From Oligoflexus sp. (GTDB taxonomy: Bacteria > Bdellovibrionota_B > Oligoflexia > Oligoflexales > Oligoflexaceae): DNA of 16,716 bases. The stretch spans positions 1-16,716 of the forward strand of contig JBGSTX010000295.1 in NCBI GenBank assembly GCA_041736305.1. The letters are read 5' to 3'. The stretch's first letter is position 1. Each line of letters begins with the position of its first letter. Under the pieces are notes generated by a model. That model was given only the letters and a program-made list of their open reading frames with translations. It did no database searches and was not told the origin of the DNA. Below, piece after piece: positions 1,170 to 16,716 of the stretch. A program made the translations under genes and the position numbers.

Positions 1170-1194
1170 TCTAGGCATCACAAGTTCCTATCGA

Positions 1195-1678: not shown

Positions 1679-1707
1679 ATCTTAGGCGAAGCCAAATAGC
1701 AGTGCAA
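1679..1707 (-). promoter_or_regulatory. Sigma70-type promoter for the 122-aa gene
   Basis: Minus strand TTGCAC-17 nt-TAAGAT, about 115 nt upstream of the ATG at 1563. Confidence 0.5.
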
Positions 1708-1886
1708 GGCGAAAATATTTGTAATTTTTGGGAAAATTCGTTTTAGCCCTCTTAGAAAAAGGGCCCCTTTCGCTGGATTATTAAGCCCTTATGACTTTGT
1801 TGCTCCGGCGATTCAAGAGTCCGCAAAAGGGCGGAGTTTGCCTAGAAATCTTGATGAGTATTAGTGGTTTAAAAGGTATTTCTTTT

Positions 1887-3272
1887 ATGGAATTCGATGC
1901 GCTATTTTCGAAACGATCGACGCATATCAAACCAGGCCTTGAGCGGATAGCTCGAAGCTATGAATATTTAGCTCGTCCTGCGAAAGATATTCCTTCGGTT
2001 CTCATCGGTGGCACCAATGGCAAAGGCAGCACGAGCGGGTTTCTCTGGTCACTCATTGCCGCCAACCAACTTGAAGCAGCGCTCTTCACCTCGCCTCATC
2101 TGGCCGCATTTTCTGAACGCTTTCAACTCTCATTACAGCCCACATCCGACGCAGAAATCTCCACTTACATAGAGCATTTGAAAGAAAGTCTAACGACTGA
2201 GCTTTATGATGAGCTGTCTTTTTTCGAGGCGACGACTCTGATCGCCTTTCAACTTTTCGCAGAGCGACAGGCGCGTTTTCAGGTTCTCGAAGTCGGCCTT
2301 GGCGGACGTTGGGACGCGACCAATATCAGCGATCCAGCTGCCTCTGTGCTGGTCAGCGTCTCACTCGATCATGCGGAATATTTGGGCAGTGATCTCGAAG
2401 GAATTCTCCGCGAGAAGCTCGGTATTATGCGCCAGGGCCGACCCTTTTTCTGGGGAGGCGGAGGCGAAATATTAGAACTGCCGCAGCATCGATCGATTAT
2501 CGAAGAGGAAGCTAAGGCTAAAGGGGCTCAGCTTATAGTCGCAGACGAGCACTTTGCATTTGACGAAGCCGCAGCGTGCATCCGACTTAATCTCCCCAAC
2601 CTAGCGCCGCTGACTCTAGCGTTGACCCCTCACTGGCAGGGGCTGCCCCGTTTTCTTTTGAAGAATCTAAGTCTCGCAGCCGCTGTTTACTGCTGGCTCA
2701 GCCAAAGAGAAAGTGCCTATGGGCTCTTGCCATTGGCTGAGGTCTGGGACAATTTTCTTGAGGGGAAACAGGCCAGTCCGGTAAGTCTGATTGGGCGCTG
2801 CCAGCGGCTCAGCGCGGGGCCTGGGTCACAGAAGTTCCTGGTAGACGTCTGTCACAATCCGGACGGAGCGCGGAACTTCGTTGCGTCCGTGAAGGCTCGG
2901 CGAGGAGAGCAGGGGCGTCCTCTCGGGGCTCTCGTTTCGGTTTTGCGCGACAAAGATTACGATCTTATCTTAGATATCTTGCGTTCTGCTTTTCAGCCTG
3001 TAATGCTCTTTGGCATCGAGCATACTCGAGCATGGGAGCCGGAGATCTTAGCGAGCCGACATCGTGATCTTCCCTTCTTTCCGAATTTTCAGGCAGCGTT
3101 GGATGCGCTGCAAGGGCAGAAAGGATCTTCAGAGCCGCGGCCCTGGGCTGTTTGCGGATCAGTATTAGCTGTAGGTCAGGTCCTGCAGAGTTTGGACGTG
3201 TCACCGAAGGACATGCATGTTGCGAGAGTTATTGGCGGTGATTGGCCTTGGGCTGATCTTCAGCAGTCTTAA
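1887..3272 (+). CDS. folC: Bifunctional folylpolyglutamate synthase/dihydrofolate synthase
   Basis: GGTNGKGST P-loop, FTSPHL, SFFEATT, LEVGLGGRWDATN, SLDHAEYLG, EKLGI, DVCHNPDG, DKD, CGS motifs. ATG 1887 (AAAAGGT upstream) fits better than 1791. Confidence 0.95.
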   Translation: MEFDALFSKRSTHIKPGLERIARSYEYLARPAKDIPSVLIGGTNGKGSTSGFLWSLIAANQLEAALFTSPHLAAFSERFQLSLQPTSDAEISTYIEHLKESLTTELYDELSFFEATTLIAFQLFAERQARFQVLEVGLGGRWDATNISDPAASVLVSVSLDHAEYLGSDLEGILREKLGIMRQGRPFFWGGGGEILELPQHRSIIEEEAKAKGAQLIVADEHFAFDEAAACIRLNLPNLAPLTLALTPHWQGLPRFLLKNLSLAAAVYCWLSQRESAYGLLPLAEVWDNFLEGKQASPVSLIGRCQRLSAGPGSQKFLVDVCHNPDGARNFVASVKARRGEQGRPLGALVSVLRDKDYDLILDILRSAFQPVMLFGIEHTRAWEPEILASRHRDLPFFPNFQAALDALQGQKGSSEPRPWAVCGSVLAVGQVLQSLDVSPKDMHVARVIGGDWPWADLQQS

Positions 3273-6200
3273 TAATCTCAGGGCACAGGAAGCTAGGAGC
3301 CCTAGTGAGAGTGAAATTCCTGACCTGGAACTTAATTCAGGTGAAGGTGTGCTCTACGATGCGCGCTCCTACGGCTTCGATCGTGGAGGGAATACCTATT
3401 TCTTCGACGGCGATGTGGTGCTTATCGGCGGTGGTTATGTCATAACCGCTGATAAAATAGTCGTCGAATACTTTAAAAAAGAAATGACGGCAAGCGGCCA
3501 CGTTCTCTTTATTCACCAAAATCAGATATTCACCGGCGAACAGGTTCACATTCAGTGGGATACCGGCGATTTTCGAATCAAAGAGGCGGTGCTCGTCGCC
3601 AATGACGCTAAAGAAATTGAAAAAGTCACCCGTCGCGTTCTAGGTCAGTCTGCTGAGGAGCTGAGCTACGAAACGGCGCGAGTCAAACGCTTGCAGGCCA
3701 TCGAAAAAGAAAAAGGCGATTTGAGGGAACTGTTTCGCCTGCAGCCTGGAGAAGAACCTGATCCAGCCACAGTGGGCTCCTACGCGCGTTTACTGGAACA
3801 GCAGAAACTCGTTAGGGAGAGCCAAGCACCGACTCAGGGTGAACGAGATCCGGAGCGCCGTCAGCGATATGAGCGCCGCCGAACGTTTTGGGAGAAGGCG
3901 AGAGCCGAGGCGGCGAAAGACGCCTTACCGCGCGAATTCTATTTCAAAATCGAGGGCGAAGTTCTGGAGCGTGTCGATGGTCATCTCTACCGAGCGAAGG
4001 ACGCGACCTTTACTCCTTGCTTCTGCGAAGCTGATGAGACGCCTGCTTGGGCTTTTCAAGCCGAAACGATCGAAGCGCAGCAAGAGGGTTACATTGATAT
4101 GGTTCATCCTATACTGAAGATCAAAGGCTTGCCTGTACTGTATCTGCCCTACTTGAAGCTCCCGCTGAAAGCCAAGCGACAGTCCGGCTTCCTCCCGCCT
4201 AGCGTGCAAACGGGCGAGGCGAAAAATGGTTTCGTCTATACCCAGCCGGTCTTCTTCGATATAGCTCCCAACGCTGACGCTACCCTGACCACCGATATAT
4301 TCCAGCGGCGCGGTACGCGGCTCGGGCTCGAGACGCGTTATGAGGCAAGGGCTTTTTCAGGATTTCGCTATCAGGTAGAAGGAATCCGGGATACCTCTTG
4401 GCTGCAGCTTGCCAATCAGCGCGAAGACCTTCTCCGCTATCATCTCGAAGAAAGTCCCTTCTGTGCAAGTGAAACAGATCTCATAGCCAGACAATTCTGC
4501 GAGCAGAAGGTGCGGGAAAATCTCGCATCCCCTTCCGATACGCAGCGGGGTAAGCAGGAATGGGAAGGGCGCTATTTTCTTGCACCCCGTCTTTCGCTGG
4601 TCAGCAACGGCAGAATAGTATCCGATCATCGTTATATCGAAGATCTCTATTTGCCCGAAAATTTCATCACAGCCTTTGCCAATTTAAACAATGCCACCCA
4701 GTTCTCAACAGCGAAAGGCAGTCTCAACTTCGATGGCAAAGACTTTTTTGCCTCGATCGGTAGCTCCTATGGTGACAATATTATCAGTGCCGAAAAATAT
4801 TCCGGGCAGCAGGCTCCGCTGATTTTCCAGCTGCAGTCTCGTTACTTTCGTCTGCTGCCTGACGGCATTCTGCCCATGCCGATTTACGCGGAACTTCAGG
4901 CTCGCTCGATCAGCATCGATGAGCAGCGATTCAGCGCCCGAGGACCTTTCAAAGTACAGGATATAAGCCTCGGCGATGGGCAATGGCAGCGCTATGCTCT
5001 GCAGCTGACGACTCCTTTGCTGAGCGATTCTATCGTGCGCATCGATCATTTTGCGGATGCGGAATTGCGCAGAATCGAGCATCAGGGTCTCGATAAGCGC
5101 AATAGCATGGTGCGCTCGTGGCGAACCGGTCTGACTCTCAATCTGCCCATCGATGGAACAGGTCCTCTCCCGGGCTTTTTGCAGTCTAAAAATTCTAAAG
5201 GAACAAGCTATGTCCAACACCTTATGAATTGGAGCCTAAGCGCTTCAGTTAGACCGGTAGTCATACGCGATGGTCCCTACGGTGACATCATCGATGGAAA
5301 GGGGGCGCCTCTAGTCTATTTTCCAAGCGATCGAAAGGTTCTTTATAGCGATGACCGCGACATCGCTGACGAAGATGTTATGGTCCCTCACCAAAGGATC
5401 ACTTTCAGTACCTTCCAGCGTTGGCAGACTTTCGATCGACTCTGGCAAACTCTGCCGGCTCAAGGGGAAACTAAGAACAAAGCCCTGAAGAGAAATCTCG
5501 ATGACTTGAAAGAGCAGGCCCTGCGCGAGCTGCAGGCAGTCAAGGACCAGCCGGTCAAGCGTCCCGAAGACATGTACAGTGAACAAGGGAGTGGCGAGGT
5601 TAAATGGTATGTGCCGCGCTATGCTTCGGTAGATCAGAATCGGGTCGAACCTCTGTGGTTCTCCGCTAGTATTAGCTACGATTATCAGCAGGAAAAACTG
5701 CGGCGGCAGCAGTTGGAGAAAAATGAAGAAATTGAACGCCAAGCGCAGGCAAGTGCCGATCCTGCTACCGCAGAAGCTGTGCGACAGAAAAAGATAGGGT
5801 ATTATGACTTGCCTGAGTCGTGGCAAGGACCTTTCGCCACTCTTGGCATGAACTACAAGGGTTTTTCTCTCTCCAGCGGACTCATCTATAACCTTTACGA
5901 AAGAACTAGCACTTCCCTTAGTTTTGCGTTAGGACTACCTCCTTTTTACAGCTCTCAGCTCGGTCTAGGGTACGTACTTGAGAAGACCCCAGAGCTCAAT
6001 ACCAGTACCAACACCTTTCTTTTTCGGCGCACTAAGACCACGACTCTGGGTTTTACGACGCGCTTGCTCCCCTACATTACTTTGGGGGCTAACCTCATCC
6101 GTAAGCAGGTGGATGATCAGAAAGGGCAGGTTCTGGCTAGTGCAGCTGATCAGAAGGTTCAGTATGGAACTTCCTATCAGTTGGCTTACGATGATTTATC

Positions 6201-6372
6201 AGGCTGCTGGGGCCTCCAGTTTCTTCGTGAAAAAGATTTGAATCAGAACGAAGAGGACGCCAACTATATCTTGCAGCTGGCAGTCATTTTTCTGGGGAAT
6301 CGGCGGTCGGGCGATATTTCTCCAGCTTTTGAGAAAGAGTTCGTTGGCGATCGTGGCCGGACCAATCCTTGA
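3217..6372 (+). CDS. lptD: LPS-assembly outer-membrane protein LptD (enlarged, 1051 aa)
   Basis: Signal peptide, OstA-like jellyroll (GDVVL..ITADKI..ASGHV), ATFTPC..PAW, VLYLPYL..KRQSGFLPP, PVFFDIAPNADATL, RGTRLGLETRY, C-terminal GCWG; located downstream of folC. Confidence 0.88.
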   Translation: MLRELLAVIGLGLIFSSLNNLRAQEARSPSESEIPDLELNSGEGVLYDARSYGFDRGGNTYFFDGDVVLIGGGYVITADKIVVEYFKKEMTASGHVLFIHQNQIFTGEQVHIQWDTGDFRIKEAVLVANDAKEIEKVTRRVLGQSAEELSYETARVKRLQAIEKEKGDLRELFRLQPGEEPDPATVGSYARLLEQQKLVRESQAPTQGERDPERRQRYERRRTFWEKARAEAAKDALPREFYFKIEGEVLERVDGHLYRAKDATFTPCFCEADETPAWAFQAETIEAQQEGYIDMVHPILKIKGLPVLYLPYLKLPLKAKRQSGFLPPSVQTGEAKNGFVYTQPVFFDIAPNADATLTTDIFQRRGTRLGLETRYEARAFSGFRYQVEGIRDTSWLQLANQREDLLRYHLEESPFCASETDLIARQFCEQKVRENLASPSDTQRGKQEWEGRYFLAPRLSLVSNGRIVSDHRYIEDLYLPENFITAFANLNNATQFSTAKGSLNFDGKDFFASIGSSYGDNIISAEKYSGQQAPLIFQLQSRYFRLLPDGILPMPIYAELQARSISIDEQRFSARGPFKVQDISLGDGQWQRYALQLTTPLLSDSIVRIDHFADAELRRIEHQGLDKRNSMVRSWRTGLTLNLPIDGTGPLPGFLQSKNSKGTSYVQHLMNWSLSASVRPVVIRDGPYGDIIDGKGAPLVYFPSDRKVLYSDDRDIADEDVMVPHQRITFSTFQRWQTFDRLWQTLPAQGETKNKALKRNLDDLKEQALRELQAVKDQPVKRPEDMYSEQGSGEVKWYVPRYASVDQNRVEPLWFSASISYDYQQEKLRRQQLEKNEEIERQAQASADPATAEAVRQKKIGYYDLPESWQGPFATLGMNYKGFSLSSGLIYNLYERTSTSLSFALGLPPFYSSQLGLGYVLEKTPELNTSTNTFLFRRTKTTTLGFTTRLLPYITLGANLIRKQVDDQKGQVLASAADQKVQYGTSYQLAYDDLSGCWGLQFLREKDLNQNEEDANYILQLAVIFLGNRRSGDISPAFEKEFVGDRGRTNP

Positions 6373-6422
6373 TTTCTCAAGCTAACGCTAAGAATTTTCA
6401 ACAAACCCTGGGAGGTTTTTCG

Positions 6423-7193
6423 ATGAAAAGAGTGGTACCAAATGCTGGACCAATCAAGTTGGAGGGTTTCAACAACCTCACCAAGGCCTTGAGCTTCAAT
6501 CTCTATGATTTCTGCATCGCGCGCAACGACGAGGAACGCGCAGCATACGTCAAATATATTCACGAACGTTTCAGTGCGAAACGAATCACAGAAATCCTCA
6601 AGGGCATCTGCGATATCATCGAAGCACAGGTCCTCGCGGTCTCCGACCAGGATTACGATCCCTGGGGCGCATCCTCGCTAGTGCTTATGAGCGATATCAA
6701 GGGCAGTGGCGTCGGCGATGTTAAGATGCACCTCGATAAGAGCCATATTTGTGCGCATACCTATCCTGATTTTCGGGTCAATGGCCAGGTTTGCTCCTTC
6801 CGCATCGACATCGACATCGCTACTTGCGGTGAGATCTCGCCTCTGCGGGCCTTGAACTTCATGTTCGAAGCCTTTGAATCAGACGTCGTCGTCGTCGACT
6901 ACGTGGTGCGCGGTTATACCCGCGACGAAGACGGACGTCGGGTCTATATGGACCACGAGCTCCGCAGCATTCAAGATTTCGTTAACGAGAATATTCTTGA
7001 CGACTATCACTGCATAGATATCGCCCTGCAGTCAGACAATATCTGGCAGACAAAGATGCTCAGGACTCGTATGGACGAGGCCTCCTACTTCATCGATAAG
7101 GAAAAAGTCGATCTGAAGAGCGAGGAAAGCCGCCGCTTTCTCGATATGGTCAAGAGCGAAATGCGCGGCGTAGTCTATATGTGGCCTGATTGA
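6423..7193 (+). CDS. speD: S-adenosylmethionine decarboxylase proenzyme (E. coli-type, class 1A)
   Basis: LEGFNNLTKALSF, QDYDPWGAS, HLDK|SHICAHTYP pyruvoyl cleavage site, TCGEISPLRALN, DYVVRGYTRD match E. coli SpeD. ATG 6423 follows GGAGG at 6411. Confidence 0.95.
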   Translation: MKRVVPNAGPIKLEGFNNLTKALSFNLYDFCIARNDEERAAYVKYIHERFSAKRITEILKGICDIIEAQVLAVSDQDYDPWGASSLVLMSDIKGSGVGDVKMHLDKSHICAHTYPDFRVNGQVCSFRIDIDIATCGEISPLRALNFMFEAFESDVVVVDYVVRGYTRDEDGRRVYMDHELRSIQDFVNENILDDYHCIDIALQSDNIWQTKMLRTRMDEASYFIDKEKVDLKSEESRRFLDMVKSEMRGVVYMWPD

Positions 7194-10057
7194 ATTTGTT
7201 TGACGAAGGAGGCGATAGCCTCCGGTTCCTTACTGAGACGTCCCCAAGGCTCTGCCGCGCTGCCTCTGCCTATCTCGGGTAGGTGCGTACAGAGGAAGAG
7301 TTTGAGCTCAGGGCAGAGAGCCCTGAGTTTTCGTAAAAACCCTGGACCATCTTCCTCCCCCTCCTCGAACAAGCCGTCACTTATCAGCGCGCGACAGTCA
7401 GCTAAGAGATCGGGATTCTCGTCCCATGCTTGCAGCATAGCTTTTGGCTCTGGGAAACAAGCTAGACTGAGGTGAGACTCTGCAGCCGAGGCTTGCCAGA
7501 TATCCGTAAAAAGCGGGTCGTCTTCGACGAGGATGAGCTGCACTCGCCGGGCTAAAAAGCTTTGGCATAAGTCGATCAGCGCGGTTTTTTGCAAGGGCTT
7601 GGGGAAAAAGACGTCAGCACCGACCTTTAAGGCTGCCTCGCGAATGGCAGAGCTACTGCGATGTGAGTGCAAGGCAATGCGGGCATGAGCTTGCAGCTTG
7701 CGAAACTGGGGAATCCAACTGAGTCCATTGCTCGAGCCGAGCTGATAGTCAATAATAATAAGATCAAATCGTTCGGTGCGGGCCCTTTCGAGCGCGGCTT
7801 CGGGATGCTCATGGCTTTCAAGCGAGACGCCGAATGAGGCCTCCTCCAAACTCTCGACCAATTCTTTGCCATACAGCAGATCCAGAGGATCATCGTCGAC
7901 CCAAAGCAAGGACAGTTTCCGCTTGTAGGAAGAGGGTAGCGGCGCGGACGTCGGCGCTTGCGGGCTGATGGTACTCCAGATCGCGGCGAGTCTATCCAGA
8001 AGCTCAGGAGGCTGGATGTCTTTCCGATAGGAACTCGGGAGAGTCACGATGAAGCTGGTTCCCTTCTCGCTATCAGACTGACAAGCTATTTGTCCACCAT
8101 GCGCGAGGACAAACTTCTTGACGATAGCGAGGCCGAGTCCTGTGCCACCTTCGGTGTAGAAGGCTTCGAAAATGCGTTTGCGCTTTTCTTCGCCGATGAA
8201 ACTGCCTGAGTTATGGATGACAATCTCTATCCAAGTCCGTCCGCCTTCGCTGCGATCTTTAGTCGAAATCGAGATGCGCCCTCCGTCGGGAGTAGCCTGA
8301 ACCGCATTATTCAAAATGTTGTTGAAAATGCGGATCAGCTTGTAGCTATCCGCTTCTAGCATGAGTCGGTGCTCCAGCTCACAGGTCAAAGCGATCGACT
8401 TCTTGCTGGGAAGAAGCAGGCGCAAACTCTCCTCCAGCGCGGTCAACGGACTCATAGCTTCTGTCAGAGTCTCGCCAGTGGCCCCCATCTCAAGTATGTC
8501 TGTAATCATTTCATTAACGGTATGGGTCATGCGCCGGACGTGCGGCAGATACTGCTTAGCCAGTTCTTTGAGTTTCTCCGGATCTTCAGTAGTCGCAAGT
8601 AGACTGAGCACGCCCTCGAGAGTCCCGAAAGGACGACGGATATCGTGGGCGAGCATCTGTACTGCTGATCCAAGAGCGCTGACTGTCGCTTCGCGCAGCT
8701 TTTTCGACTCCTGTCGAGGACGACTCTCGCCTACTGAATTGAGAATGAGCGAGCCAAGGGCAGGTAAATCGCTCAGTAGCATGCGATTGCTAAAGGCTAG
8801 CAGATTGCAGATGCCGAGAGGGAGAAACTGCGGATTGTGAACGAGAGCGTGCAGCCAGTCGCGAAGACGACGGTCGCGCTGGATAGTGCTAGGGTCGAGG
8901 AGAAGCTTTTCAAGGAAAGGTCGTTGCTCGACGCCACCAATAGCTTGCCGGTAAAGGAGACGTAAACCCAGCTCAGCGGCAGAGAGACTGGCCTCGCGGC
9001 TGTAGTTAGGCAGCGCAAAAATCCAACCGTCTACACCGTCGCCTTCAGCTTGAAAGTGCAGCTCAAGCTGAAAATGATGAGTAGCGAAAGCCGCTAGGTC
9101 CTCAAGAAAAACTTGCGAACAGACCCCCGGATCGTAAGCGAACGTCCAGGACTTCCGCTGCAAGTGAGGATCTGACGGCAAAGGATGGATGTCGGCATCA
9201 ACTGCGAAACTATGCTCGCTGTAGAGTTCGCCAAGTCGTCGAAGATTCCAGGCATTGCGGCGCTGAGCAAATCCCTGCAGAGCCGTCCGAAGGGTCTCAC
9301 TGCCCTGGAAGCGGTTCCGCAGCCAGACAGCAAGCTGCATCTCAGGCCGCAGGTTTAGGTTCATGACTCCGCTCAGTGAGCTGGTCTGAGGTGCCCTGCT
9401 GAGAGTACTCGGAAAAATTGCAAGGTAAGCAGCCGAGTCATGACTCTGGTCTAGTGGAAGCTGCTCAAGGGTCTGCACCACGACTTCCTCGTAGATCCGA
9501 GAGTTTCGGGGCTCATCGGGGTGGAGCTTGAGCCGAAGGGAGCTGGGCGACTGGCTCGACACAAACCAAGGGCCGCTGCTGATCCCACTAGGCCGATAGA
9601 TGCTGCACTCAGGTAGGGCCAGACGTTCGAGGAGATCCGGCACTAGACCGTGCAAGAGGATTTCAAAGCGATAGCGGGAATGGAGCTTGAAACTTTTTTC
9701 AGAGCCTAAGCCCTGAAAGCGCAGAAGCCTTCCGAGTTGCGATGCGCTGCTCGCTCGCCTTGCCACCCGCAAAAGGCAGGATATAACGTCAGCTGCACAT
9801 ATCTCATCACCTTGATGGAAGCGTCGACCTTTTTTAATCTGTAGTCTGTAGCTGCCATCTTCTTTACTTATGGAACATGATTCGAGCAGAGATCGATCGG
9901 TCTGCCCACCCTGGCGGAGCTCGACCAAGCGAATAGCGCAGTTGGTCCAATAAAACTCTTCTATCCAACTGTCGGCGGCAGGAAGGCTTTCTGGGTCGAG
10001 ATGAGGGAGACGAGGAAGATAGAGGTGAAGAATGTGATCTCGGGTTTCAAGGAGCAT
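7175..10057 (-). CDS. Hybrid sensor histidine kinase: N-terminal family-5 solute-binding-like domain, HisKA, HATPase, two receiver domains
   Basis: H-box LAHDIRRPF, N-box RIFNNILNNAVQA, F-box RIFEAFYT, G2 GGTGLGLAI. REC1 VDDDP/IIIDYQ/FPKP and REC2 VEDDP/LISD. N-terminal LLESCSISKEDGSYRLQIKKGRRFHQGDEICAADV resembles the SBP_bac_5 signature. Confidence 0.88.
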   Translation of the reverse strand: MLLETRDHILHLYLPRLPHLDPESLPAADSWIEEFYWTNCAIRLVELRQGGQTDRSLLESCSISKEDGSYRLQIKKGRRFHQGDEICAADVISCLLRVARRASSASQLGRLLRFQGLGSEKSFKLHSRYRFEILLHGLVPDLLERLALPECSIYRPSGISSGPWFVSSQSPSSLRLKLHPDEPRNSRIYEEVVVQTLEQLPLDQSHDSAAYLAIFPSTLSRAPQTSSLSGVMNLNLRPEMQLAVWLRNRFQGSETLRTALQGFAQRRNAWNLRRLGELYSEHSFAVDADIHPLPSDPHLQRKSWTFAYDPGVCSQVFLEDLAAFATHHFQLELHFQAEGDGVDGWIFALPNYSREASLSAAELGLRLLYRQAIGGVEQRPFLEKLLLDPSTIQRDRRLRDWLHALVHNPQFLPLGICNLLAFSNRMLLSDLPALGSLILNSVGESRPRQESKKLREATVSALGSAVQMLAHDIRRPFGTLEGVLSLLATTEDPEKLKELAKQYLPHVRRMTHTVNEMITDILEMGATGETLTEAMSPLTALEESLRLLLPSKKSIALTCELEHRLMLEADSYKLIRIFNNILNNAVQATPDGGRISISTKDRSEGGRTWIEIVIHNSGSFIGEEKRKRIFEAFYTEGGTGLGLAIVKKFVLAHGGQIACQSDSEKGTSFIVTLPSSYRKDIQPPELLDRLAAIWSTISPQAPTSAPLPSSYKRKLSLLWVDDDPLDLLYGKELVESLEEASFGVSLESHEHPEAALERARTERFDLIIIDYQLGSSNGLSWIPQFRKLQAHARIALHSHRSSSAIREAALKVGADVFFPKPLQKTALIDLCQSFLARRVQLILVEDDPLFTDIWQASAAESHLSLACFPEPKAMLQAWDENPDLLADCRALISDGLFEEGEEDGPGFLRKLRALCPELKLFLCTHLPEIGRGSAAEPWGRLSKEPEAIASFVKQIQSGHI

Positions 10058-10361
10058 TGTTCAGTCCGTTCTCACGATTCCCAAGGAGCGGTTCTATCAC
10101 GAGAGTTTGGAGAGCTTCGAGCTTACTCAGGTGCTTATCGAAGGCAGCCTGTTTGAGAGGATCTATCGAGTCTTCTCCGCCTTTGAGACCCTTCTGCGCG
10201 AGGTAGCGGAGCGTGCGGATAGCACCTATGTAATCGTGATAGAGACGCCGACGAGCTTCCGCACCGGCAGGCCCGGCTGCTAAATCGATCGAGGCTTCAA
10301 TTCGCCCGTCGATCGCTTCGTTGAAGCGCCAAGTTCCGAAAGGTGGACGAGTCGTTTCCAT
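10047..10361 (-). CDS. Hypothetical protein, 104 aa, possible stand-alone DHp/histidine phosphotransfer protein
   Basis: AGGAGGG RBS; TAATG coupling to the upstream gene and 11-nt overlap with the kinase start; helical with H-box-like RRRLYHDYIGAIRTL. Confidence 0.75.
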   Translation of the reverse strand: METTRPPFGTWRFNEAIDGRIEASIDLAAGPAGAEARRRLYHDYIGAIRTLRYLAQKGLKGGEDSIDPLKQAAFDKHLSKLEALQTLVIEPLLGNRENGLNNAP

Positions 10362-11881
10362 TAGGCACCCTCCTGCGGTATAGAGTCTCCGCTGACATTG
10401 ACCATCGCTTTTAACTCAGTCGCACTCACCAAATCTTTCTTGATGAGATCCTGCAGCTTCGTTGAAAGGGTCGAGCGCGGGATGAGGAGAAGGCGTGCGA
10501 GCTGCCTGAGGGTCATGCGGCCTTCTTTTGCATAGCAGCGTCGAATAAGACTTAATAGGAGCTGCATGCTCAGTCGCTCGAAGGGAATTTGCGCTTCTCT
10601 ATCCCAGTCGAGAATTATCTGCTCTTTGCTAGAGACGGAGGCAGAGTTTGAAACTTTTTCTTTTTCTTCTGCTCCTGCTTCTGTAGCAGCTTCTAAGGCA
10701 GTCATCTGGGACCAGATGTAAGCGGGGATGGCCGAAGGACTCATAAGGCCCCCGTAAGCGTGCTCGGTCATGGCGCGAAGACAGTTTCTAAGTTCACGAA
10801 TATTGCCGTGGCGCCAATCGTATTGCTTTAATACCTGAACTGTCGCTGCCGCAATGCTGTAAGGCCCTCCCCTCATAGTTTGACAGAAGAGCGGTACCAG
10901 CTCGTCGAGCTCATCCTTCCGCGTATGGAGCGGTGGCAGGTGAATGACGGCTTCGCAGAGCCGCTGCCAGAGATCTCGGCGAAATAAGCCCTTTTCCACC
11001 AGACTTTCTAGGTTTTCGTTGGTAGCTGAGAGCACGCGAACGCTAATTTTCTTTGGCATGGAAGCGCCGACCGGCCGCAGCTCTTGATTTTCGAGAACAC
11101 GCAGCAAGGCCACCTGCGTTGCAGCACTGAGAGTGGCCACTTCATCGAGAAAGACCCAGCCACCGTCAGCCTGTTCAAAAAGTCCAATCTTGCTCTGCTG
11201 AGCGCCCGTAAACGCTCCCTTAACGTGACCGAAAAGTTCAGATTCGATAAGTCCTGCGGGAAAAGTTCCGCAGTGTATGCGGATGAAAGGGAGTCGCCCA
11301 GCAAAATGCGCCGCAAACATATCGGCAACGACCTCTTTACCCGTACCTGTTTCTCCAAAGATATGTATTGAACTCAGGGCTGAGGATATGAGGCGCGGAA
11401 TGCGTTCGCTGAGTTCACGCGCTGTCCGACCCGCGACATGAGCTAGTCCTGCTGCGGTCGCTAGGGAAGCGGCATTGCCGTGCTTGCGCTTTTCCTGCTC
11501 TTGCCGCCTGAGATATTCTTGCTGCGCGGCGAAGATCCGGGCCCGCATTCCCTGCTCGTCCTGACCTTTGAAGAGGAAATCGTCGGCTCCGCGAGCAATG
11601 CAGCTGCGAACCGTTTGCGTATCGTGCAGGTCAGAGCACATGACGATCATTGTGCCGGGAAGGCGACTTCTCAACTGCTTGGCCAAACCGCGGCCGTCCT
11701 CTTCACCCTCAGCCAGAAAGATATCCAAGATCACGACGGCGGGATCTGGAGCGCGGTCTATAGCTTGCCAAAGTTCGGCGGGACTCGTGAACGAACGGAC
11801 GGCTTCACCGAGGATCTCTCGGACCTGAGCCAGGAAAAGCTCATCATCATCGAGGTGATAAATAGGGCTAAGGGGGTGCAT
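10361..11881 (-). CDS. Sigma54-dependent response regulator (NtrC/AtoC-family bEBP: REC-AAA+-HTH)
   Basis: REC (LDDD, VILD, FLFK), Walker A GETGTGKE, ESELFGHVKGAFTGA, Walker B FLDEV, SATN, FRRDLWQRL, GNIRELRN, C-terminal HTH LARLLLIPRSTLSTKL. Confidence 0.95.
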   Translation of the reverse strand: MHPLSPIYHLDDDELFLAQVREILGEAVRSFTSPAELWQAIDRAPDPAVVILDIFLAEGEEDGRGLAKQLRSRLPGTMIVMCSDLHDTQTVRSCIARGADDFLFKGQDEQGMRARIFAAQQEYLRRQEQEKRKHGNAASLATAAGLAHVAGRTARELSERIPRLISSALSSIHIFGETGTGKEVVADMFAAHFAGRLPFIRIHCGTFPAGLIESELFGHVKGAFTGAQQSKIGLFEQADGGWVFLDEVATLSAATQVALLRVLENQELRPVGASMPKKISVRVLSATNENLESLVEKGLFRRDLWQRLCEAVIHLPPLHTRKDELDELVPLFCQTMRGGPYSIAAATVQVLKQYDWRHGNIRELRNCLRAMTEHAYGGLMSPSAIPAYIWSQMTALEAATEAGAEEKEKVSNSASVSSKEQIILDWDREAQIPFERLSMQLLLSLIRRCYAKEGRMTLRQLARLLLIPRSTLSTKLQDLIKKDLVSATELKAMVNVSGDSIPQEGA

Positions 11882-12027
11882 GCGATCCCTTCGGAAAGCG
11901 TTTTCTATACCCCAGAAATGGCCGAAATCGGGACAAGTTGCAAGTCGTAGGTCTTGCTTATGGCCCAGATTTGTCCTCCGCGGCCGGACTATAAATCATA
12001 AGTACATGTAATAATTGGAATTAAAAT

Positions 12028-12045
12028 TTGGCACGAAAGGTGGAA
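12028..12045 (+). promoter_or_regulatory. Sigma54 (-24/-12)-like promoter
   Basis: TTGGCACGAAAGGTGGAA: perfect -24 TGGCACG, with GG instead of GC at -12; AT-rich upstream; about 30 nt before the ATG at 12077; divergent from a bEBP gene. Confidence 0.65.
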
Positions 12046-12076
12046 TAGGGGCTTTACCTAACTAAGGAGTTCCCAG

Positions 12077-12256
12077 ATGAGAAAGTTAAATTCTATCCGC
12101 CTCTACCTCTTCAAATTGCACCAGATCAGACAAATCGCTGCCGCTAAAGCCCGGAAGAAAAGTTTCTACTACCGTGCAGATCGGGAGAAGTTTGAATCGG
12201 TTCAAGGGGCAATCCGCGACCGGCTAGCTTGGGAGAACGGCCGCCATGCTAGCTGA
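12077..12256 (+). CDS. Small basic protein, 59 aa (MRKLNSIRLYLFKLHQIRQIAAAKARKKSFYYRADREKFESVQGAIRDRLAWENGRHAS)
   Basis: Translated by hand; absent from the ORF track. TAAGGAG RBS at 12063-12069, ATG 12077, TGA 12254-12256; flanked by a promoter and a terminator. Confidence 0.72.
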   Translation: MRKLNSIRLYLFKLHQIRQIAAAKARKKSFYYRADREKFESVQGAIRDRLAWENGRHAS

Positions 12257-12278
12257 AACAAAAAGCTCAAAAGGCAAG

Positions 12279-12315
12279 AACGAGGCTCAGCTCAAAAGGC
12301 TGGCCTCGTTTTTTT
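12279..12315 (+). terminator. Rho-independent terminator (possibly bidirectional)
   Basis: AACGAGGC(T)CAGC-TCAAAAG-GCTGGCCTCGTT followed by a T run; lies between the 59-aa ORF and the convergent lipoprotein gene. Confidence 0.8.
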
Positions 12316-13339
12316 ATGGGATCTGGTTTTGTTGGTTATTATCGGTGTCAGAATCCGGAAGAGGCGGTCCAAGTGGGTCCGTAATCGGTTCAGACCCGAT
12401 ATTCTCGAGCCGGAGGCTATAGGCCGGGCTGAAGGTTTGCTTATCCTGATCACTGAACTGATAGAAAATTTCCGCTGGCGTATTGCTGCTGATAGGAATT
12501 TGAATCTGCCCGTCCAGACTCATCCAGTTATTGCTGAAGCTTAATTCTTCCTCACTCAAAGCTAGCCGCACCCAACGACACATGGCATTTCCGCTCATCG
12601 AAAAATTCAACGATTTAATATTTGGATCATCGGTGCGAAAGCTCGTAGGAATTTCCAGGCGACCATCAACGATCAAGCGATCGTAAAGACGAAAATCTCT
12701 ATTGTCGTCACTTGTGCCCACATTCCAGATGCCTTTAGTTTGTACATAGCCTTTTAGGGAAATACGAACGGGTAGCAGGCTTTCGGATGGAGCATAAAGC
12801 CTAAAATTTCCGTCAAGATCGGTCGTAGCAGCCAAGCGGCCCACATGAACCAGCGCACCTTCTGCGGGTGAATCGCCCTCTGCGAAAGACTTCGGAGCCA
12901 TGACCTGACCGCTGATGACAACCGGGGTCTGGAGTCTGATGATCCCCAAATCCATGTTACCGACTTCTACTGCTTTTAGCTTATCGTAGACGGCTGATTC
13001 CCCAGGGAAGCCCGCGTTGGTAAAATAGAGACGAAGAGGCTGACCGAGACCACCGTAGCGAACCTTGAGCTCGTCCTTACGTTCACTGGACCAGCTGAAT
13101 GAAAAACGCCCGTCTGCATCGGTGATCTGTTCAGGAGTAGTCTCCTGCTCAACAAATACGCCTATCCCTGCAGCGGCTTGCCCGAAACTGTCTTGTACCT
13201 GTCCGCTCACGCTGAGGGGAACATCTTGGGATTTGACAGCGGCCTTAGGATTTTTCAGGCAGGCTCCCCCTTGCAGAGCGAGGATTAGGCCCGAAGCCTG
13301 GAACATCCTGCTAAAAAAAATCAGTGTTTGACTCCGCAT
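12314..13339 (-). CDS. Putative lipoprotein with two carboxypeptidase-regulatory-like beta-sandwich domains
   Basis: GAGGAG RBS; signal with lipobox-like LQGGAC; repeats VSGQVQD..ITDADGRFSF and ISGQV..PAEGALV..TTDLDGNFRL..KGY. Confidence 0.75.
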   Translation of the reverse strand: MRSQTLIFFSRMFQASGLILALQGGACLKNPKAAVKSQDVPLSVSGQVQDSFGQAAAGIGVFVEQETTPEQITDADGRFSFSWSSERKDELKVRYGGLGQPLRLYFTNAGFPGESAVYDKLKAVEVGNMDLGIIRLQTPVVISGQVMAPKSFAEGDSPAEGALVHVGRLAATTDLDGNFRLYAPSESLLPVRISLKGYVQTKGIWNVGTSDDNRDFRLYDRLIVDGRLEIPTSFRTDDPNIKSLNFSMSGNAMCRWVRLALSEEELSFSNNWMSLDGQIQIPISSNTPAEIFYQFSDQDKQTFSPAYSLRLENIGSEPITDPLGPPLPDSDTDNNQQNQIP

Positions 13340-13396
13340 GACCGGGGCTCCTCAAGAGAATAGACGCGTTTTTGCGAAAGCTTCAATCTCAATTAC

Positions 13397-13413
13397 TGCA
13401 AGGATCTGACCAA
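13397..13413 (-). promoter_or_regulatory. Sigma54 promoter for the lipoprotein gene
   Basis: Minus strand TTGGTCAGATCCTTGCA = GG-N10-GC with TTGCA at -12, about 58 nt upstream of ATG 13339. Confidence 0.65.
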
Positions 13414-13451
13414 GCGGCAGAGCCGTGGCGCCAGGAAAATTTTGATGAGAT

Positions 13452-13480
13452 TTGATAGGATTAGCCGCTGCTGCTAAACT
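13452..13480 (+). promoter_or_regulatory. Sigma70-type promoter for the polysaccharide export operon
   Basis: TTGATA-17 nt-TAAACT with extended -10 TGn. Confidence 0.55.
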
Positions 13481-13563
13481 TAGAAGCAAAGCATCATGAC
13501 CAATATCTAGACGCCTCGCTGCGATGCATGGGGAACGGTCGGGTAACAGGAAGGAGCATAGAT

Positions 13564-14400
13564 ATGCTGGGCTTGAGCCTCTTCTCTCGCCGTACCAGAG
13601 CTCGGACTACGGGTCTGATCCTGATTTCGGCAATTCTCCTAGCGTCATGCAACAAGTCGGAAGATGAGACCACCTGCAATCTCGACGCTAACGGTCTAAA
13701 AAGCGAAGGCTGGAACAGTAGCGAACTCAAAGATCTGGAATTATCATTTATTTTCCTCAAGGGACCTTCAGGCGTCTCTGCCGACATTGGCGACGTGCTA
13801 CAACTCAATGGGATATCGGCCTTATTCTTTGTGCAGGGTTCTGCCATCGAAGGTAATAAGGACCAACTGCCGATTCTCAAGGACCAGGGCCACCTCATCG
13901 GCAATGGTGGCTATCGCTATCAAGATCTGACTAAAGCCGAACACCCCGTGCTCGAGCTCAGAACCACAGACGGGCTCATCACGCCGTACGTGACCGGCAA
14001 CATGTTTCTCTTTCATGCGCCGCTGAAATCCTTTAACGAGCAGTCCGCGGCTCTTTACCGGGCCAATGGCCTCGGCAAGTACGTTGGACCCATTTTCGAC
14101 GACACCACGCCGAGCGAAACGTTTCGCTATGACGAGCAGTGTTGGGTCGACAATCTGACGCCAGCCGTATGTGCACAGCAGTACTTCGATGAGCTCAAAC
14201 GTATAGGGAAGGGCATCGTGGCTTTCAACGACACGCAGCCGAAATCCCTCGAAATGCTCAACGAGTTGCTTCCCCAATTGAAGACCTTTGGGTTCACCTT
14301 TGTTCGCATCGACCAAATTCCGAGCATCCGCAGTGCCCTGACTCGTGCAGGCGCCCTCGTCGATGCAACGGGATCCAGTTCTTGCGATGATTACGATTGA
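13564..14400 (+). CDS. Polysaccharide deacetylase (CE4/NodB)-fold lipoprotein, catalytic motifs degenerate
   Basis: GGAAGGAG RBS before ATG 13564; lipobox LLASC; NodB scaffold ALFFVQG, GHLIGN, KGIVAFND, LPQLKTFGFTFVRI. Confidence 0.75.
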   Translation: MLGLSLFSRRTRARTTGLILISAILLASCNKSEDETTCNLDANGLKSEGWNSSELKDLELSFIFLKGPSGVSADIGDVLQLNGISALFFVQGSAIEGNKDQLPILKDQGHLIGNGGYRYQDLTKAEHPVLELRTTDGLITPYVTGNMFLFHAPLKSFNEQSAALYRANGLGKYVGPIFDDTTPSETFRYDEQCWVDNLTPAVCAQQYFDELKRIGKGIVAFNDTQPKSLEMLNELLPQLKTFGFTFVRIDQIPSIRSALTRAGALVDATGSSSCDDYD

Positions 14401-14410
14401 GGAGGCTGCC

Positions 14411-16006
14411 TTGTCGCTTCACTTAGGGTTCCTTCGCTCTCTCCGAGCCACAAGCTACGGAGCCTGCTTTATCATCGGGCTCTGGCAAGGAGCCGTGCTC
14501 GAGGCGAAAGAACTTCCGCCGGCGAATGGTATCGCCTGCGATGCCGCAAGCTGGGCGCTCTATATTGCCAAGGCCCAGAGTTTGGCTAGCGAAACCGAAA
14601 GCATGGGCCGCACGATTATCACTTGCCCAAGCGGAGACTACCGTCAGGCCGGTCTTTACTGGTTGGCTTTTTACCTGCATATGACACAGCAAAACGCTGC
14701 TTTCAGTCAGACTTTCAAGCTTCTGCCAGCACCTACAGGCTCTGACAAGAATATGGTGCGCTATCGGGCATGGAATGGCGACACAGAGACTTTGAAAAGC
14801 AAAGTTCAGAATAGCGAAAAAGGCTATTTCGATGACCCCGAGATGACATTGGCCCTAGCGAGAGCTTCAATGCGAGCTGGGCTTTATAAAGATGGTCTTC
14901 AAAACTTTGAAATATACTTAAAACAAAGAGAGAGCGACGAAGCTGTCGAGGCTGAGCGACTCTTTGCCTATCTCTGGGCTGGAGACAAACAGGCGGCGCG
15001 CCTGCAAATCGGTTCCATGCGACGCTATGCCGTTAGCCCTTATCTGCGCCAGTCGCTTGATCGAGCCGAAGCCCTGCTAGGGCCAGAGGACGTCATCGCT
15101 TCGAGCGAATGGCTCGGCAGCAAGGGTACCTGGTTGCGAATCAGCGGCAACGAATATAGCGACAACCGAGGTTTTGAACGCCGAGGAATCGGACTTGCAT
15201 ACAATGGACCCGTGGAAATCGGCGTCGATGCCTTTGAATCGAGGCACCCCCTCGACCCCGAAACTGAAAATCAAGCCTCCCTAAACCTTGGCAAGACTTT
15301 GAGCGGCAGCTCTTGGAAAGCAGGAGCACGCGTCGGCTACTTTACAGTCGGCCCTCAAAATTTCACGGGCCGCCTCCAAGCCGAATGGTTGCCTTTGGAT
15401 TCTCTACTCGTCGGAGTTGCCGCCCAACGCGAAGCAATAGCGGTCCTTGATCGGCCACTGGTCGGTGCGAGGCGCGGGGTCATGCGTGACACAGGAGAGT
15501 TTCTCTTAGGTGGTTTTCGCCGCAGAATAAGCTTCAAGGCAGCTTTCAACCGAGACGATGAAAAGGCATTTTTCGAGCTTTACGAAGCTGAGCTGCGCAT
15601 AGGTGCCTTGTTAAATCGGGAGACTGATCTGGGCTTTGGATTTTTCATCCCCATTTCCTATCAGCATCGCCCGCTTCCCAGCCAAGATTTAGTGACTTTT
15701 CCGAAAGAGGCCCGGACTGGCCTCGGCTTGCGCTTGGCGCTTGGTGATGGCGCTACCCTGCGGGTTGGCACGGAAGCTCTGATCGAAACCGTGTTCCGCA
15801 GCTACTTCATCGAGCCTGACGATTTCGAACAGCTGCTGTCAGCGCGTGTTCGCAGCGATATTCGTTACTATACGAGCTCGTCCTTTTGCTACTTTCTCAA
15901 CGCTGAACTGAAGCTCACCGAGCGCAATCCATTCGAAAATGAGAACGAGAGAAAGACCGCATTCACCATCGGTATTGCTCTCCGCGATACAGAGCAACAG
16001 AAATAG
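14411..16006 (+). CDS. Secreted TPR-containing outer-membrane beta-barrel protein (probable polysaccharide export porin)
   Basis: GAGGAGG RBS then in-frame TTG at 14411; signal peptide ending VLEA; helical TPR-like N-half (LALARASMRAGLYKDGLQNFEIYL); C-half of alternating-hydrophobic beta strands; directly upstream of an OPX gene. Confidence 0.6.
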   Translation: MSLHLGFLRSLRATSYGACFIIGLWQGAVLEAKELPPANGIACDAASWALYIAKAQSLASETESMGRTIITCPSGDYRQAGLYWLAFYLHMTQQNAAFSQTFKLLPAPTGSDKNMVRYRAWNGDTETLKSKVQNSEKGYFDDPEMTLALARASMRAGLYKDGLQNFEIYLKQRESDEAVEAERLFAYLWAGDKQAARLQIGSMRRYAVSPYLRQSLDRAEALLGPEDVIASSEWLGSKGTWLRISGNEYSDNRGFERRGIGLAYNGPVEIGVDAFESRHPLDPETENQASLNLGKTLSGSSWKAGARVGYFTVGPQNFTGRLQAEWLPLDSLLVGVAAQREAIAVLDRPLVGARRGVMRDTGEFLLGGFRRRISFKAAFNRDDEKAFFELYEAELRIGALLNRETDLGFGFFIPISYQHRPLPSQDLVTFPKEARTGLGLRLALGDGATLRVGTEALIETVFRSYFIEPDDFEQLLSARVRSDIRYYTSSSFCYFLNAELKLTERNPFENENERKTAFTIGIALRDTEQQK

Positions 16007-16026
16007 GTGAGGAGTAGAAAAAAGGC

Positions 16027-16629
16027 ATGAGCTGCAAATCGACCAGTCTCGTTCTGCTGCTGAGCTCAGCGATCACTTCCTGCAGCTACAAGATTCCAGC
16101 CGAAGACATCGCCCAGCTCCAAGCGGGAAAGACCTTCAACCGGCAGGGTAGCTTCCTCATCGGCGCAGGCGATGAGATCGACATTTTCGTCTTCGGCGAG
16201 GAAAAGCTCAGCGGACGTTTCACCGTCTCGCCAACAGGCGTGCTGGCCTTTCCCTTGCTAGCCCCTATTGCTGTCACTGGGATGACGACCGCGCAGCTGA
16301 CCAAGCGGCTCGAAACAGGGCTCGACTCCATAGTCAAAAATCCGCGCGTAGTCTGTTCACTCCTCGGCATCCGTAGCTTTCAGGTCTACTTTGGAGGAGA
16401 AGTGAAGCGCGTCGGTGCCGTGCCCCTGACGAGCGAGACGACGTTCCTCCAGGCTCTGACGCTGGCGGGAGGCATTACTGAATTTGCTAGCGGACGCATC
16501 GTCCTGGTCCGACAACTCGGCAACAATAAGGTCCGGCGCTTCGCGATTCGCTACGATGATATTCTGAGCGGCGAACGCTATGTCGACACTATTTCACTCG
16601 AAAGCGGCGATGTGATATTTGCTGAGTAA
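16027..16629 (+). CDS. wza: Polysaccharide export protein OPX/Wza family lipoprotein (short, Poly_export + one SLBB)
   Basis: GAGGAG RBS; lipobox AITSC; IGAGDEIDIFVFGEEKLSGRFTVSPTG..FPL..GMT Poly_export motif; GEVKRVG..QALTLAGG SLBB; ends LESGDVIFAE. Confidence 0.9.
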   Translation: MSCKSTSLVLLLSSAITSCSYKIPAEDIAQLQAGKTFNRQGSFLIGAGDEIDIFVFGEEKLSGRFTVSPTGVLAFPLLAPIAVTGMTTAQLTKRLETGLDSIVKNPRVVCSLLGIRSFQVYFGGEVKRVGAVPLTSETTFLQALTLAGGITEFASGRIVLVRQLGNNKVRRFAIRYDDILSGERYVDTISLESGDVIFAE

Positions 16630-16657
16630 ACGCCCTCTGCGAAAGAAAGAGTCCAGC

Positions 16658-16716
16658 ATGAATCAGCCCCTTCCCCCTCAGCAGGGGACCGATCAGGGCC
16701 ATTGGCGGTCCCTCCG
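16658..16716 (+). CDS. Start of next ORF (truncated by window edge); unidentifiable, Wzc-like only by context
   Basis: ATG 28 nt after the OPX stop, purine-rich upstream, open to the end (MNQPLPPQQGTDQGHWRSL). Confidence 0.35.
   Translation, partial: MNQPLPPQQGTDQGHWRSL

Follow-up and report, generated by a model that had tools for sequence, protein, structure and literature searches.

A stretch of 16,716 nt from Oligoflexus sp. (contig JBGSTX010000295.1 of assembly GCA_041736305.1, positions 1 to 16,716; this whole stretch is called the window) was analysed for a candidate signal transduction module that had been predicted from its letters. On the minus strand, three open reading frames (ORFs) lie head to tail, at 10361-11881 (506 aa), 10047-10361 (104 aa) and 7175-10057 (960 aa). 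They encode a bacterial enhancer-binding protein (bEBP), the class of activators that act on sigma-54 RNA polymerase, a 104-aa protein (p104) and a hybrid histidine kinase with a sensor similar to family-5 solute-binding proteins (SBP5). The bEBP and p104 ORFs overlap by 1 nt and those of p104 and the kinase by 11 nt, which fits translational coupling. Divergent from these genes, the plus strand carries a self-contained unit of a promoter element, a ribosome-binding site (RBS), an ORF of 59 codons (s59) and a terminator. All features named by the original prediction were found in the sequence where it had placed them, and its three coupled minus-strand genes (bEBP, 104-aa protein and SBP5-HK-REC-REC protein) were borne out by the ORFs, their overlaps, Pfam and a fold model. 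The features of the module, with the evidence for each, are as follows:

7175..10057, minus strand: hybrid histidine kinase of 960 aa with SBP5-like sensor, DHp, CA, REC1 and REC2 (Pfam, fold, hydropathy, full-length orthologues in nine relatives)
8723..10057, minus strand: N-terminal sensor of the kinase, approximately residues 1-445, with a predicted family-5 solute-binding protein fold, predicted to be cytoplasmic (AlphaFold2, Foldseek, orthologues with PF00496)
8033..8671, minus strand: kinase core with HisKA/DHp at residues 463-524 (H-box AHDIRRPF) and HATPase_c at residues 570-675 (Pfam)
7193..7906, minus strand: REC1 at residues 718-829 (Pfam) and REC2 at approximately residues 838-955 (alignment), with conserved signature residues
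10047..10361, minus strand: p104, candidate histidine phosphotransfer protein of 104 aa, His42 codon at 10236-10238 (position in the operon, invariant His, model)
10361..11881, minus strand: bEBP of 506 aa with REC, AAA+ with GAFTGA, lid and a C-terminal winged-helix-like DNA-binding region (Pfam, translation)
11919..11935, no strand assigned: distal candidate activator site (upstream activator site), inverted repeat TGGCCGAAATCGGGACA (G[GT]CC-N7-GG[AC]C at the equivalent place in 9/10 loci, weak in G015)
11962..11976, no strand assigned: proximal candidate activator site GGCCCAGATTTGTCC, whose start precedes that of the -24 element by 67 nt
12029..12044, plus strand: sigma-54-like promoter TGGCACGAAAGGTGGA, TGGCAC-N5-GTGGA, with GG at -24, TG at -14/-13 and no C at -12 (kept in 10/10 loci)
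12064..12256, plus strand: RBS AAGGAG (12064-12069) and s59 ORF from the ATG at 12077 to 12256, 59 aa, pI 11, 15 K/R (homologues, codon-position pattern)
12276..12316, plus strand: intrinsic terminator of the s59 unit, which lies also just 3' of a convergent lipoprotein gene (folding, pattern scan)

Conservation of the operon and its divergent unit

The kinase was searched in 40 related genomes and full-length relatives were found in nine of them, covering five genera. The holders of the module are five of the 13 other genomes of the genus and four of the eight genomes from other genera of the family; since only part of the genomes of genus and family carry it, the module is accessory. Names found on related proteins were Oligoflexus tunisiensis, Pseudobacteriovorax and Pseudobdellovibrionaceae, which indicates Oligoflexia. 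In one genome (G009) the kinase match, and hence the operon, is split over two contigs. In all nine relatives p104 is encoded directly upstream of the kinase, including G021, in which it was detected by tblastn with an E-value of 7.9e-4 and by a profile search with an E-value of 3.9e-19. An orthologous activator (44-66% identity) is encoded directly upstream of p104, and the order bEBP, p104, kinase is identical in the genomes of the nine relatives. Synteny of the genes had been put forward as a check on the original prediction and, indeed, these three genes turned out to be co-conserved.

The divergent unit gave the same picture. A sigma-54-like promoter points away from the operon in 10 of 10 genomes, the window included, and is followed by a basic ORF of ~45-60 aa in nine of them; the tenth locus (G015) ends at a contig edge after 18 codons. 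Promoter and small ORF therefore accompany the operon wherever the locus is complete (9/9), as the prediction had it. In six relatives the sigma-54-like element, the RBS and the small ORF are divergent from the activator gene and adjoin it. In G006, G007 and G002 (loci L021, L022 and L023) an inserted gene of ~0.55 kb for a hydrophobic membrane protein separates the activator gene from the small-ORF unit, and a small-ORF profile gave weak matches ~1 kb further on. There, beyond the insertion, the unit recurs: TGGCA[CT]AAAGTCTGTA is preceded by an inverted repeat and followed by an RBS and a homologous ORF of 43-47 aa. Since the promoter elements are kept in the relatives, they are beyond what chance would give. 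Taken as a conserved operon with a divergent promoter and a small ORF, the module is almost certainly real.

Sensor kinase, activator and p104

Pfam assigned HisKA (PF00512), HATPase_c (PF02518) and one REC (PF00072) to the kinase, all above the cut-offs, which makes it a hybrid kinase. The H-box His is kept in 12 of 12 aligned kinases. In all 12, neither REC1 nor REC2 has lost a signature residue (acidic pair, acceptor Asp, Ser/Thr and Lys), which confirms the second receiver domain claimed before. The SBP_bac_5 (PF00496) match of the window kinase stayed below threshold (22.2 bits, cut-off 32.4 bits), and its orthologues P0076, P0077 and P0079 carry precomputed PF00496. An AlphaFold2 model of the sensor (residues 1-450), built on nine orthologues, reached a predicted local distance difference test (pLDDT) value of 73.9 and a predicted TM-score of 0.77. 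In a Foldseek search of the PDB it matched NikA best (E-value 2e-20), followed by YliB, OppA and DppA (E-values up to 1e-16) and by AppA, with TM values of 0.6-0.73 over ~500-540 alignment columns, gaps included. The family-5 domain call is thus confirmed by the fold, the Pfam match alone being below threshold. The kinase has no membrane segment (the highest 19-residue Kyte-Doolittle mean is 1.32); its N-terminus is charged, without signal peptide or lipobox, and the SBP5 domain is fused directly to DHp. Because neither a hydrophobic segment nor a signal peptide is present, the sensor is predicted to be cytoplasmic, so that fold and hydropathy together support the proposed cytoplasmic sensor kinase.

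The bEBP contains REC, Sigma54_activat (PF00158, E-value 3.9e-51) and AAA_lid_14 according to Pfam, and its translation shows the Walker A sequence GETGTGKE and GAFTGA, as is typical of an NtrC-class AAA+ protein. Its REC domain retains the phospho-acceptor signature. A Fis-type helix-turn-helix (HTH_8) was not matched in Pfam; the C-terminus gave weak MarR_2/HTH_24 matches at residues 449-487. The protein scored below every NCBIfam equivalog cut-off, for instance with 178.9 vs 800 bits for LuxO (NF041946) and 247.9 vs 558.6 bits for NtrC. The window genome contains one rpoN gene and ~15 full-length bEBP matches. REC2 of the kinase (7280-7455) and the bEBP receiver (~11640-11800) have in common an unusual acidic insertion just after the acceptor Asp (EEGEEDG and AEGEEDG, respectively), and tblastn cross-matches them over 59 residues with 35.6% identity. 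REC2 is possibly a paralogue of the activator receiver, and the two might be in competition for p104.

In the module genomes p104 is always encoded between bEBP and kinase. A profile search of 1.84 billion representatives yielded 61 clusters of the family, all of them stand-alone proteins of 63-172 aa. In the alignment of 62 sequences His42 is the single invariant column (62/62); Asp43 and Arg49 are each kept in 59 and Ala47 in 51 sequences, and the residue at H+4 is small throughout (G in 32, A in 24, S in 6). The window protein reads H42-D-Y-I-G46. This motif resembles both the H-box of HisKA and the signature of histidine phosphotransfer (HPt) proteins, for which a passage in PMC6341664 calls a Gly at H+4 conserved. 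The H-box- or HPt-like character ascribed to the 104-aa protein by the original prediction is thus reflected in an invariant His within such a motif. The AlphaFold2 model of p104 (pLDDT 84.3) has a beta-hairpin (residues 10-26) and two long helices, at 31-59 and 68-93, the first of which carries the His. It is not a monomeric four-helix bundle and, unlike proteins of the Spo0B/ChpT type, it ends ~10 residues past helix 2 without a C-terminal CA-like alpha/beta domain. A prediction of the homodimer with two copies scored 0.36, with a mark of 0.42 and controls at 0.00-0.01; it gave no answer and was counted neither for nor against a dimer.

A hybrid kinase is normally unable to serve a response regulator directly and a His relay is called for. 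Because the kinase is hybrid and both its receivers as well as that of the bEBP keep the phospho-acceptor signature, a relay appears to be needed here. p104 is the only conserved candidate for a His carrier, and the activator is the only receiver with an output domain; for this reason p104 suggests itself as the carrier between the two.

Several observations weigh against this assignment. The window p104 belongs to no Pfam or NCBIfam family and has no sequence match in the PDB. Across the 62 family members, Pfam Hpt (PF01627) gave three weak matches (best E-value 0.017) and HisKA a single one (E-value 0.02). When the family was aligned with the DHp of the cognate kinases by hhalign, His42 did fall on the phospho-His, a point in favour of a carrier, but the match is weak (E-value 0.021, probability 2.2%). 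A profile of p104 matched PDB sequences at chance level only (Mediator Med10, E-values 0.02-0.06). Fold searches with the model are uninformative for a two-helix protein such as this one: Foldseek found nothing in the PDB at E <= 0.001, the best kinase row being 7ltq_D with a probability of 0.47, and VIA-align wide returned generic helical hairpins only (Z <= 7.6), with DesK at rank 46 (Z 6.3). The protein atlas gave no usable match for p104 or s59.

The distribution of the family cuts both ways. A profile search of 131 genomes of the class found p104 homologues in 54. At 20 further loci of the class, and in favour of the relay, an orthologous REC-AAA+ activator adjoins p104 in 11 and a kinase is nearby in eight, three of these kinases having an SBP-like N-terminus. 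In the remaining nine neither bEBP nor kinase adjoins, and six of these nine were scanned with Pfam. In one other family of the order (L072, L074 and L078) p104 homologues in frames of 114-140 aa lie beside gmk and relA/spoT; at two other loci a homologue lies beside a PBP1-like gene and beside an arginine decarboxylase gene, respectively. Since nine of the 20 loci stand apart from bEBP and kinase, the family may have a role outside the relay. As side observations, yicC also lies beside the homologue in L078, and in L083 (7386-9997) a homologue has a Fur-family gene on one side and, on the other, a stand-alone SBP_bac_5 gene encoding 528 aa, an arrangement that may be a split form of the link between sensor and carrier.

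These points would suit a p104 that acts as a modulator, that is as an inhibitor, scaffold or connector docking on DHp or a receiver, with the kinase phosphorylating the activator directly and its own receivers serving as sinks or regulatory domains. The missing Hpt and HisKA family match, the two helices in place of a four-helix bundle and the nine loci apart from any kinase or bEBP are in line with such a role. A modulator is nevertheless unlikely, since the sole invariant residue is a His, which together with the Asp next to it and the small residue at H+4 makes up the signature of phosphorylatable His sites, and since every cognate SBP-sensor kinase is hybrid, two receivers being present in 12 of 12. 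On balance we regard p104 as the probable phosphocarrier of the relay, albeit with considerable reserve.

The divergent promoter, its candidate activator sites and the small protein

An element of the form TGG[CT]A[CT]-N5-NTGNN, with GG at -24 and the spacing of a sigma-54 promoter, was found in 10 of 10 loci; in the nine complete ones the ATG of the small ORF follows 48-88 nt after its start. Every intergenic region contains the inverted repeat G[GT]CC-N7-GG[AC]C, and a second copy is present in the window and in G009. Measured from start to start, repeat and promoter are 67-68 nt apart in the window, G009, G006, G007, G002 and G018, 86-88 nt in G021, G014 and G018, and 108-109 nt in the window and G009. 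As these offsets step by ~21 nt, the candidate sites would all face the same side of the DNA. Where the membrane-protein gene is inserted (G006, G007 and G002), one repeat stayed by the start codon of the activator gene and the second moved with the small-ORF promoter, so that the copies flank the insertion; a repeat that travels with the promoter past an insertion shows the behaviour expected of an upstream activator site. A site with dyad symmetry fits better to a dimer of winged-helix proteins than to a Fis-type helix-turn-helix, and its distance from the -24/-12-type promoter is that of an enhancer. Wherever the operon occurs, a divergent sigma-54-like promoter and its small ORF go with it, together with candidate activator sites, and the activator very probably drives the s59 promoter.

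To look for further targets, a composite pattern of repeat plus promoter was run. In five relatives it recovered the small-ORF locus in three (G006, G007 and G002); G008 and G009 were missed because their spacing is outside the pattern, and otherwise the pattern matched roughly as often as its reversed control. In the window genome the pattern gave three matches, the control none. The two extra matches in this genome (G000; C137:4358 and C390:7418) have half-sites that lack the GAAAT core, lie in an unclear gene context and are unconvincing. The regulon of the activator is probably very small. A scan for sigma-54-like elements near the activators present at the more distant p104 loci revealed no shared target, and the targets of the relay seem to differ between families. 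Canonical sigma-54-like elements were seen near the p104-bEBP pair in L066, upstream of p104 itself, and in L068, before an ORF of 204 aa with a hydrophobic N-terminus.

The small ORFs of nine relatives are homologous to s59 (alignment A3). Their N-termini are amphipathic, and they have in common a basic patch as well as the motif F-[FY]-Y..E.R.[FY]. Among the three closest homologues, pairwise differences at first, second and third codon positions amounted to 8/9/30, 10/9/26 and 10/4/20. Because the differences concentrate at third positions, s59 is to be taken as a coding sequence that is translated under purifying selection. The terminator hairpin with its U-tract has a folding energy of -26 kcal/mol (z -4.75), and none of 200 shuffled sequences was as stable. 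A shared-word search among 5.8 billion clusters found nine s59 clusters, all unnamed or labelled "hypothetical protein", with Oligoflexus tunisiensis and Pseudobacteriovorax antillogorgiicola among the holders; s59 itself belongs to no Pfam or NCBIfam family, and Pfam gave nothing meaningful on its nine homologues. Since s59 is small, basic, aromatic and strictly linked to the form of the relay with an SBP kinase, a protein-binding regulator is favoured, and our guess is that it maybe feeds back on the relay.

On the output side, too, there are points that count against the proposed circuit. GC at -12 is present in none of the 10 elements (GTGGA, GTGAA, CTGTA, TTGTA and TTGAT were found), and the two unconvincing extra matches in the window genome belong here as well. 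An s59 profile found no match at E <= 1 in the 20 more distant p104 loci; as no s59 homologue was found outside the bacterial family, the small-protein output is not conserved with the relay.

Lack of GC at -12 is what would be seen if the divergent element were not a working sigma-54 promoter, the small gene being read from another promoter and the repeats merely autoregulating the bEBP operon. One repeat is indeed always located within ~40-70 nt of the bEBP start codon and stays there in the three genomes whose small ORF is ~1 kb away. However, TGG[CT]A[CT] and the exact N5 to TG persist in 10 of 10 genomes through diverged intergenic DNA, the element keeps a fixed distance from the ORF, the second repeat moved with the promoter at the offset of 67-68 nt in the three insertion genomes, and a scan for sigma-70 patterns lists no site upstream of the ORF. 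We therefore consider this explanation improbable and retain a sigma-54 promoter under control of the activator.

The original prediction had further considered a dual-function RNA as the output, and a short transcript that mainly base-pairs like SgrS or Qrr, with the ORF secondary, would match the layout: the unit is short and monocistronic, has its own terminator and is divergent from a sigma-54 activator, as qrr1 is in a passage of PMC8043402. Such a role is unsupported and quite improbable, since the ORF evolves as a coding sequence with close homologues differing mainly at third positions, RBS and ATG are kept in 9 of 9 loci, F-[FY]-Y..E.R.[FY] is kept while the nucleotides diverge, and the leader would be only ~20-25 nt long if transcription starts ~11 nt downstream of the element. 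The product of the unit is thus better described as a small protein.

Convergent to s59 there is a lipoprotein gene with a promoter of its own:

12314..13339, minus strand: putative lipoprotein with a CarboxypepD_reg-like domain, outside the module (Pfam, orthologues in the genus)
13397..13412, minus strand: canonical-looking sigma-54 promoter of the lipoprotein gene, TGGTCAGATCCTTGCA, 73 nt upstream of the ATG (conserved upstream of orthologues)

Orthologues of the lipoprotein are present in 12 of the 13 other genomes of the genus. TGG-N8-TTGCA was found upstream of nine of the 10 orthologues inspected, the window included, and GGG-N8-TTGCA upstream of the tenth. The promoter looks real and more canonical than that of the small ORF, so that the second sigma-54 promoter of the original prediction stands as present and conserved; the assignment of the lipoprotein to the system does not. 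Four genomes in which the module (kinase and p104) was not found keep the promoter (G003, G004, G005 and G013). In the 16-kb module loci of the nine relatives tblastn found no match to the lipoprotein, and in the five module-bearing genomes of the genus its orthologue is on another contig or 70-80 kb away (G006 and G007). In G008, G004, G006 and G007 a repeat TGTCA-N8-[TA]GTCAG lies ~100 nt upstream of the lipoprotein promoter and may be the site of a different activator. The lipoprotein was rejected as a member of the module, because its promoter is kept without the module and the gene is never syntenic; a function as second target of the activator, as suggested by the adjacent, convergent gene and its good sigma-54-like promoter, is highly improbable given the four genomes with promoter and no module, the distance from the module in the relatives, the different repeat and the finding that the loose pattern TG[GT]CC-N7-GG[AC]CA has no match upstream of the lipoprotein gene in the window. 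From these comparisons the gene is best seen as part of another regulator's regulon and its adjacency in the window as coincidental.

The flanks (window 1-7193 and 13528-16716) are envelope-related according to Pfam. They encode a protein with a SecD/SecF-family C-terminal domain (likely SecF), a Mur-ligase-like protein, an LptD_2-like protein of 1051 aa, an AdoMet-decarboxylase-like protein, a polysaccharide deacetylase, a protein of 553 aa without family and a Wza-like Poly_export/SLBB protein. None of these flanking proteins had a tblastn match in the module loci of the relatives, and no window gene outside the module is syntenic there.

The proposed relay and its place among known systems

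In sum, it is rather likely that the four genes form a relay in which kinase, p104 and activator switch on one small protein. In this relay the soluble hybrid kinase would sense a cytoplasmic small molecule by its N-terminal family-5 domain, autophosphorylate on the H-box His and then pass the phosphoryl group to one of its own receivers. p104, which is probably dimeric, with helical hairpins that would form a four-helix bundle, would carry the group on His42. The phosphorylated activator would bind to the G[GT]CC-N7-GG[AC]C repeats in the divergent intergenic region and drive sigma-54 RNA polymerase at TGGCAC-N5-GTGGA. The product would be a short monocistronic mRNA for a strongly basic protein of ~59 aa, apparently the only clear target of the relay, and this protein could, as a guess, act by binding and modulating some macromolecule, perhaps in feedback on the relay itself. 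The sequences show the anatomy, the co-conservation, the predicted folds, the invariant residues and that the small ORF codes for protein; the phosphotransfer steps, the binding to DNA, the dependence on sigma-54, the ligand and the role of the small protein we infer.

The logic of the module had been taken as undescribed, with enterobacterial SgrR and SgrS/SgrT as analogue. SgrR unites an SBP domain with one that binds DNA, and its action through sigma-70 is direct. The analogy holds for the cytoplasmic family-5 SBP-like sensor and for the divergent short transcript that encodes a small protein. It is loose in that the SBP domain of the module feeds a kinase and not a DNA-binding domain: it starts at residue 1, is followed by the kinase core and lacks the N-terminal winged-helix DNA-binding domain, and the signal is proposed to pass through three phosphotransfer steps to a sigma-54 activator. 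Further, nothing supports an RNA function like that of SgrS.

The quorum-sensing pathway of Vibrio is much closer. There, the signal takes the same path from the hybrid kinases LuxN, LuxQ and CqsS via LuxU, a His carrier of ~100 aa, to the REC-AAA+ activator LuxO, and the genes for activator and carrier form one operon in the order luxO-luxU. The short target is divergent and located immediately upstream of the activator gene, with sites for activator and sigma-54; a passage in PMC8043402 places the sigma-54-dependent qrr1 gene 151 bp upstream of luxO, oriented the opposite way. The module differs in its output, which is a translated protein of ~59 aa in place of the small RNA qrr1, in p104, which has no recognisable HPt four-helix bundle whereas LuxU is an HPt protein, and in the kinase, a soluble protein that is fused to an SBP5 sensor and whose gene belongs to the operon itself. 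Besides, the activator has a winged-helix-like DNA-binding end instead of the Fis-type helix-turn-helix of LuxO, and the -12 element of the promoter has no GC. By analogy, LuxU-LuxO-qrr1 of Vibrio is the closest precedent in logic and layout, closer than SgrR-SgrS, and in the light of that passage of PMC8043402 the logic of the module can no longer be called undescribed. With NtrB-NtrC the module shares a REC-AAA+ protein with GAFTGA, upstream candidate sites and a promoter of the -24/-12 type, and it differs in the proposed multistep transfer, the lack of HTH_8 and the lack of GC at -12.

Multistep phosphorelays are usually recognised by an HPt protein or a carrier like Spo0B or ChpT. Monomeric HPt proteins (PF01627; LuxU, ShpA, Ypd1 and the C-terminus of ArcB) resemble p104 in their size of ~100 aa, the His with a small residue at H+4 and the genetic place between hybrid kinase and response regulator. 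p104 is different in that Pfam Hpt leaves it unmatched and two long helices with a beta-hairpin are predicted. Spo0B of Bacillus and ChpT of Caulobacter carry the phospho-His on a helical hairpin that pairs with a second copy and relay between two receivers, as we propose for p104; they have a CA-like C-terminal alpha/beta domain, whereas p104 with its 104 aa has an N-terminal beta-hairpin and no such domain. ChpT is described in one passage of PMC3433190 as a dimeric phosphotransferase resembling histidine kinases. Searches with Pfam and with profiles against the PDB detected no sequence relation of p104 to Spo0B or ChpT. It is conceivable, and we put it forward tentatively with more doubt than confidence, that p104 founds a structural class of its own, the third among the histidine phosphotransfer proteins of bacteria, acting in a relay from a cytoplasmic SBP kinase to a sigma-54 activator with a single target, a basic regulatory protein of ~50 aa that would be a protein counterpart of Qrr and might feed back on the relay. 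Such a carrier would be minimal, with a beta-hairpin, two helices and the motif H-D-x-x-[GAS]-A-x-R, an obligate dimer bundle, invisible to family libraries and widespread in Oligoflexia.

Three of the four parts of the module are without an annotated family. A literature search of limited scope found no description of the module or of the p104 and s59 families; it was directed at cytoplasmic SBP_bac_5-kinase fusions, two-component or sigma-54 regulation in Oligoflexus, and small proteins under sigma-54 control in connection with phosphorelays. If p104 is an unannotated family of carriers, relays would be under-counted in this class and perhaps elsewhere, and many "orphan" hybrid kinases might have unseen partners. 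Solute-binding proteins are described in a passage of PMC8050422 as extracytosolic actors; fusion of an SBP5 domain to a soluble kinase, as proposed here, would offer a clean model for a Venus-flytrap sensor that drives DHp without a membrane. The module would be a tidy circuit of one input and one output, ending in a small protein. Small proteins are a poorly charted layer of bacterial regulation and, as the named species Oligoflexus tunisiensis is among the holders of the small protein, the predictions made here may be testable in culture.

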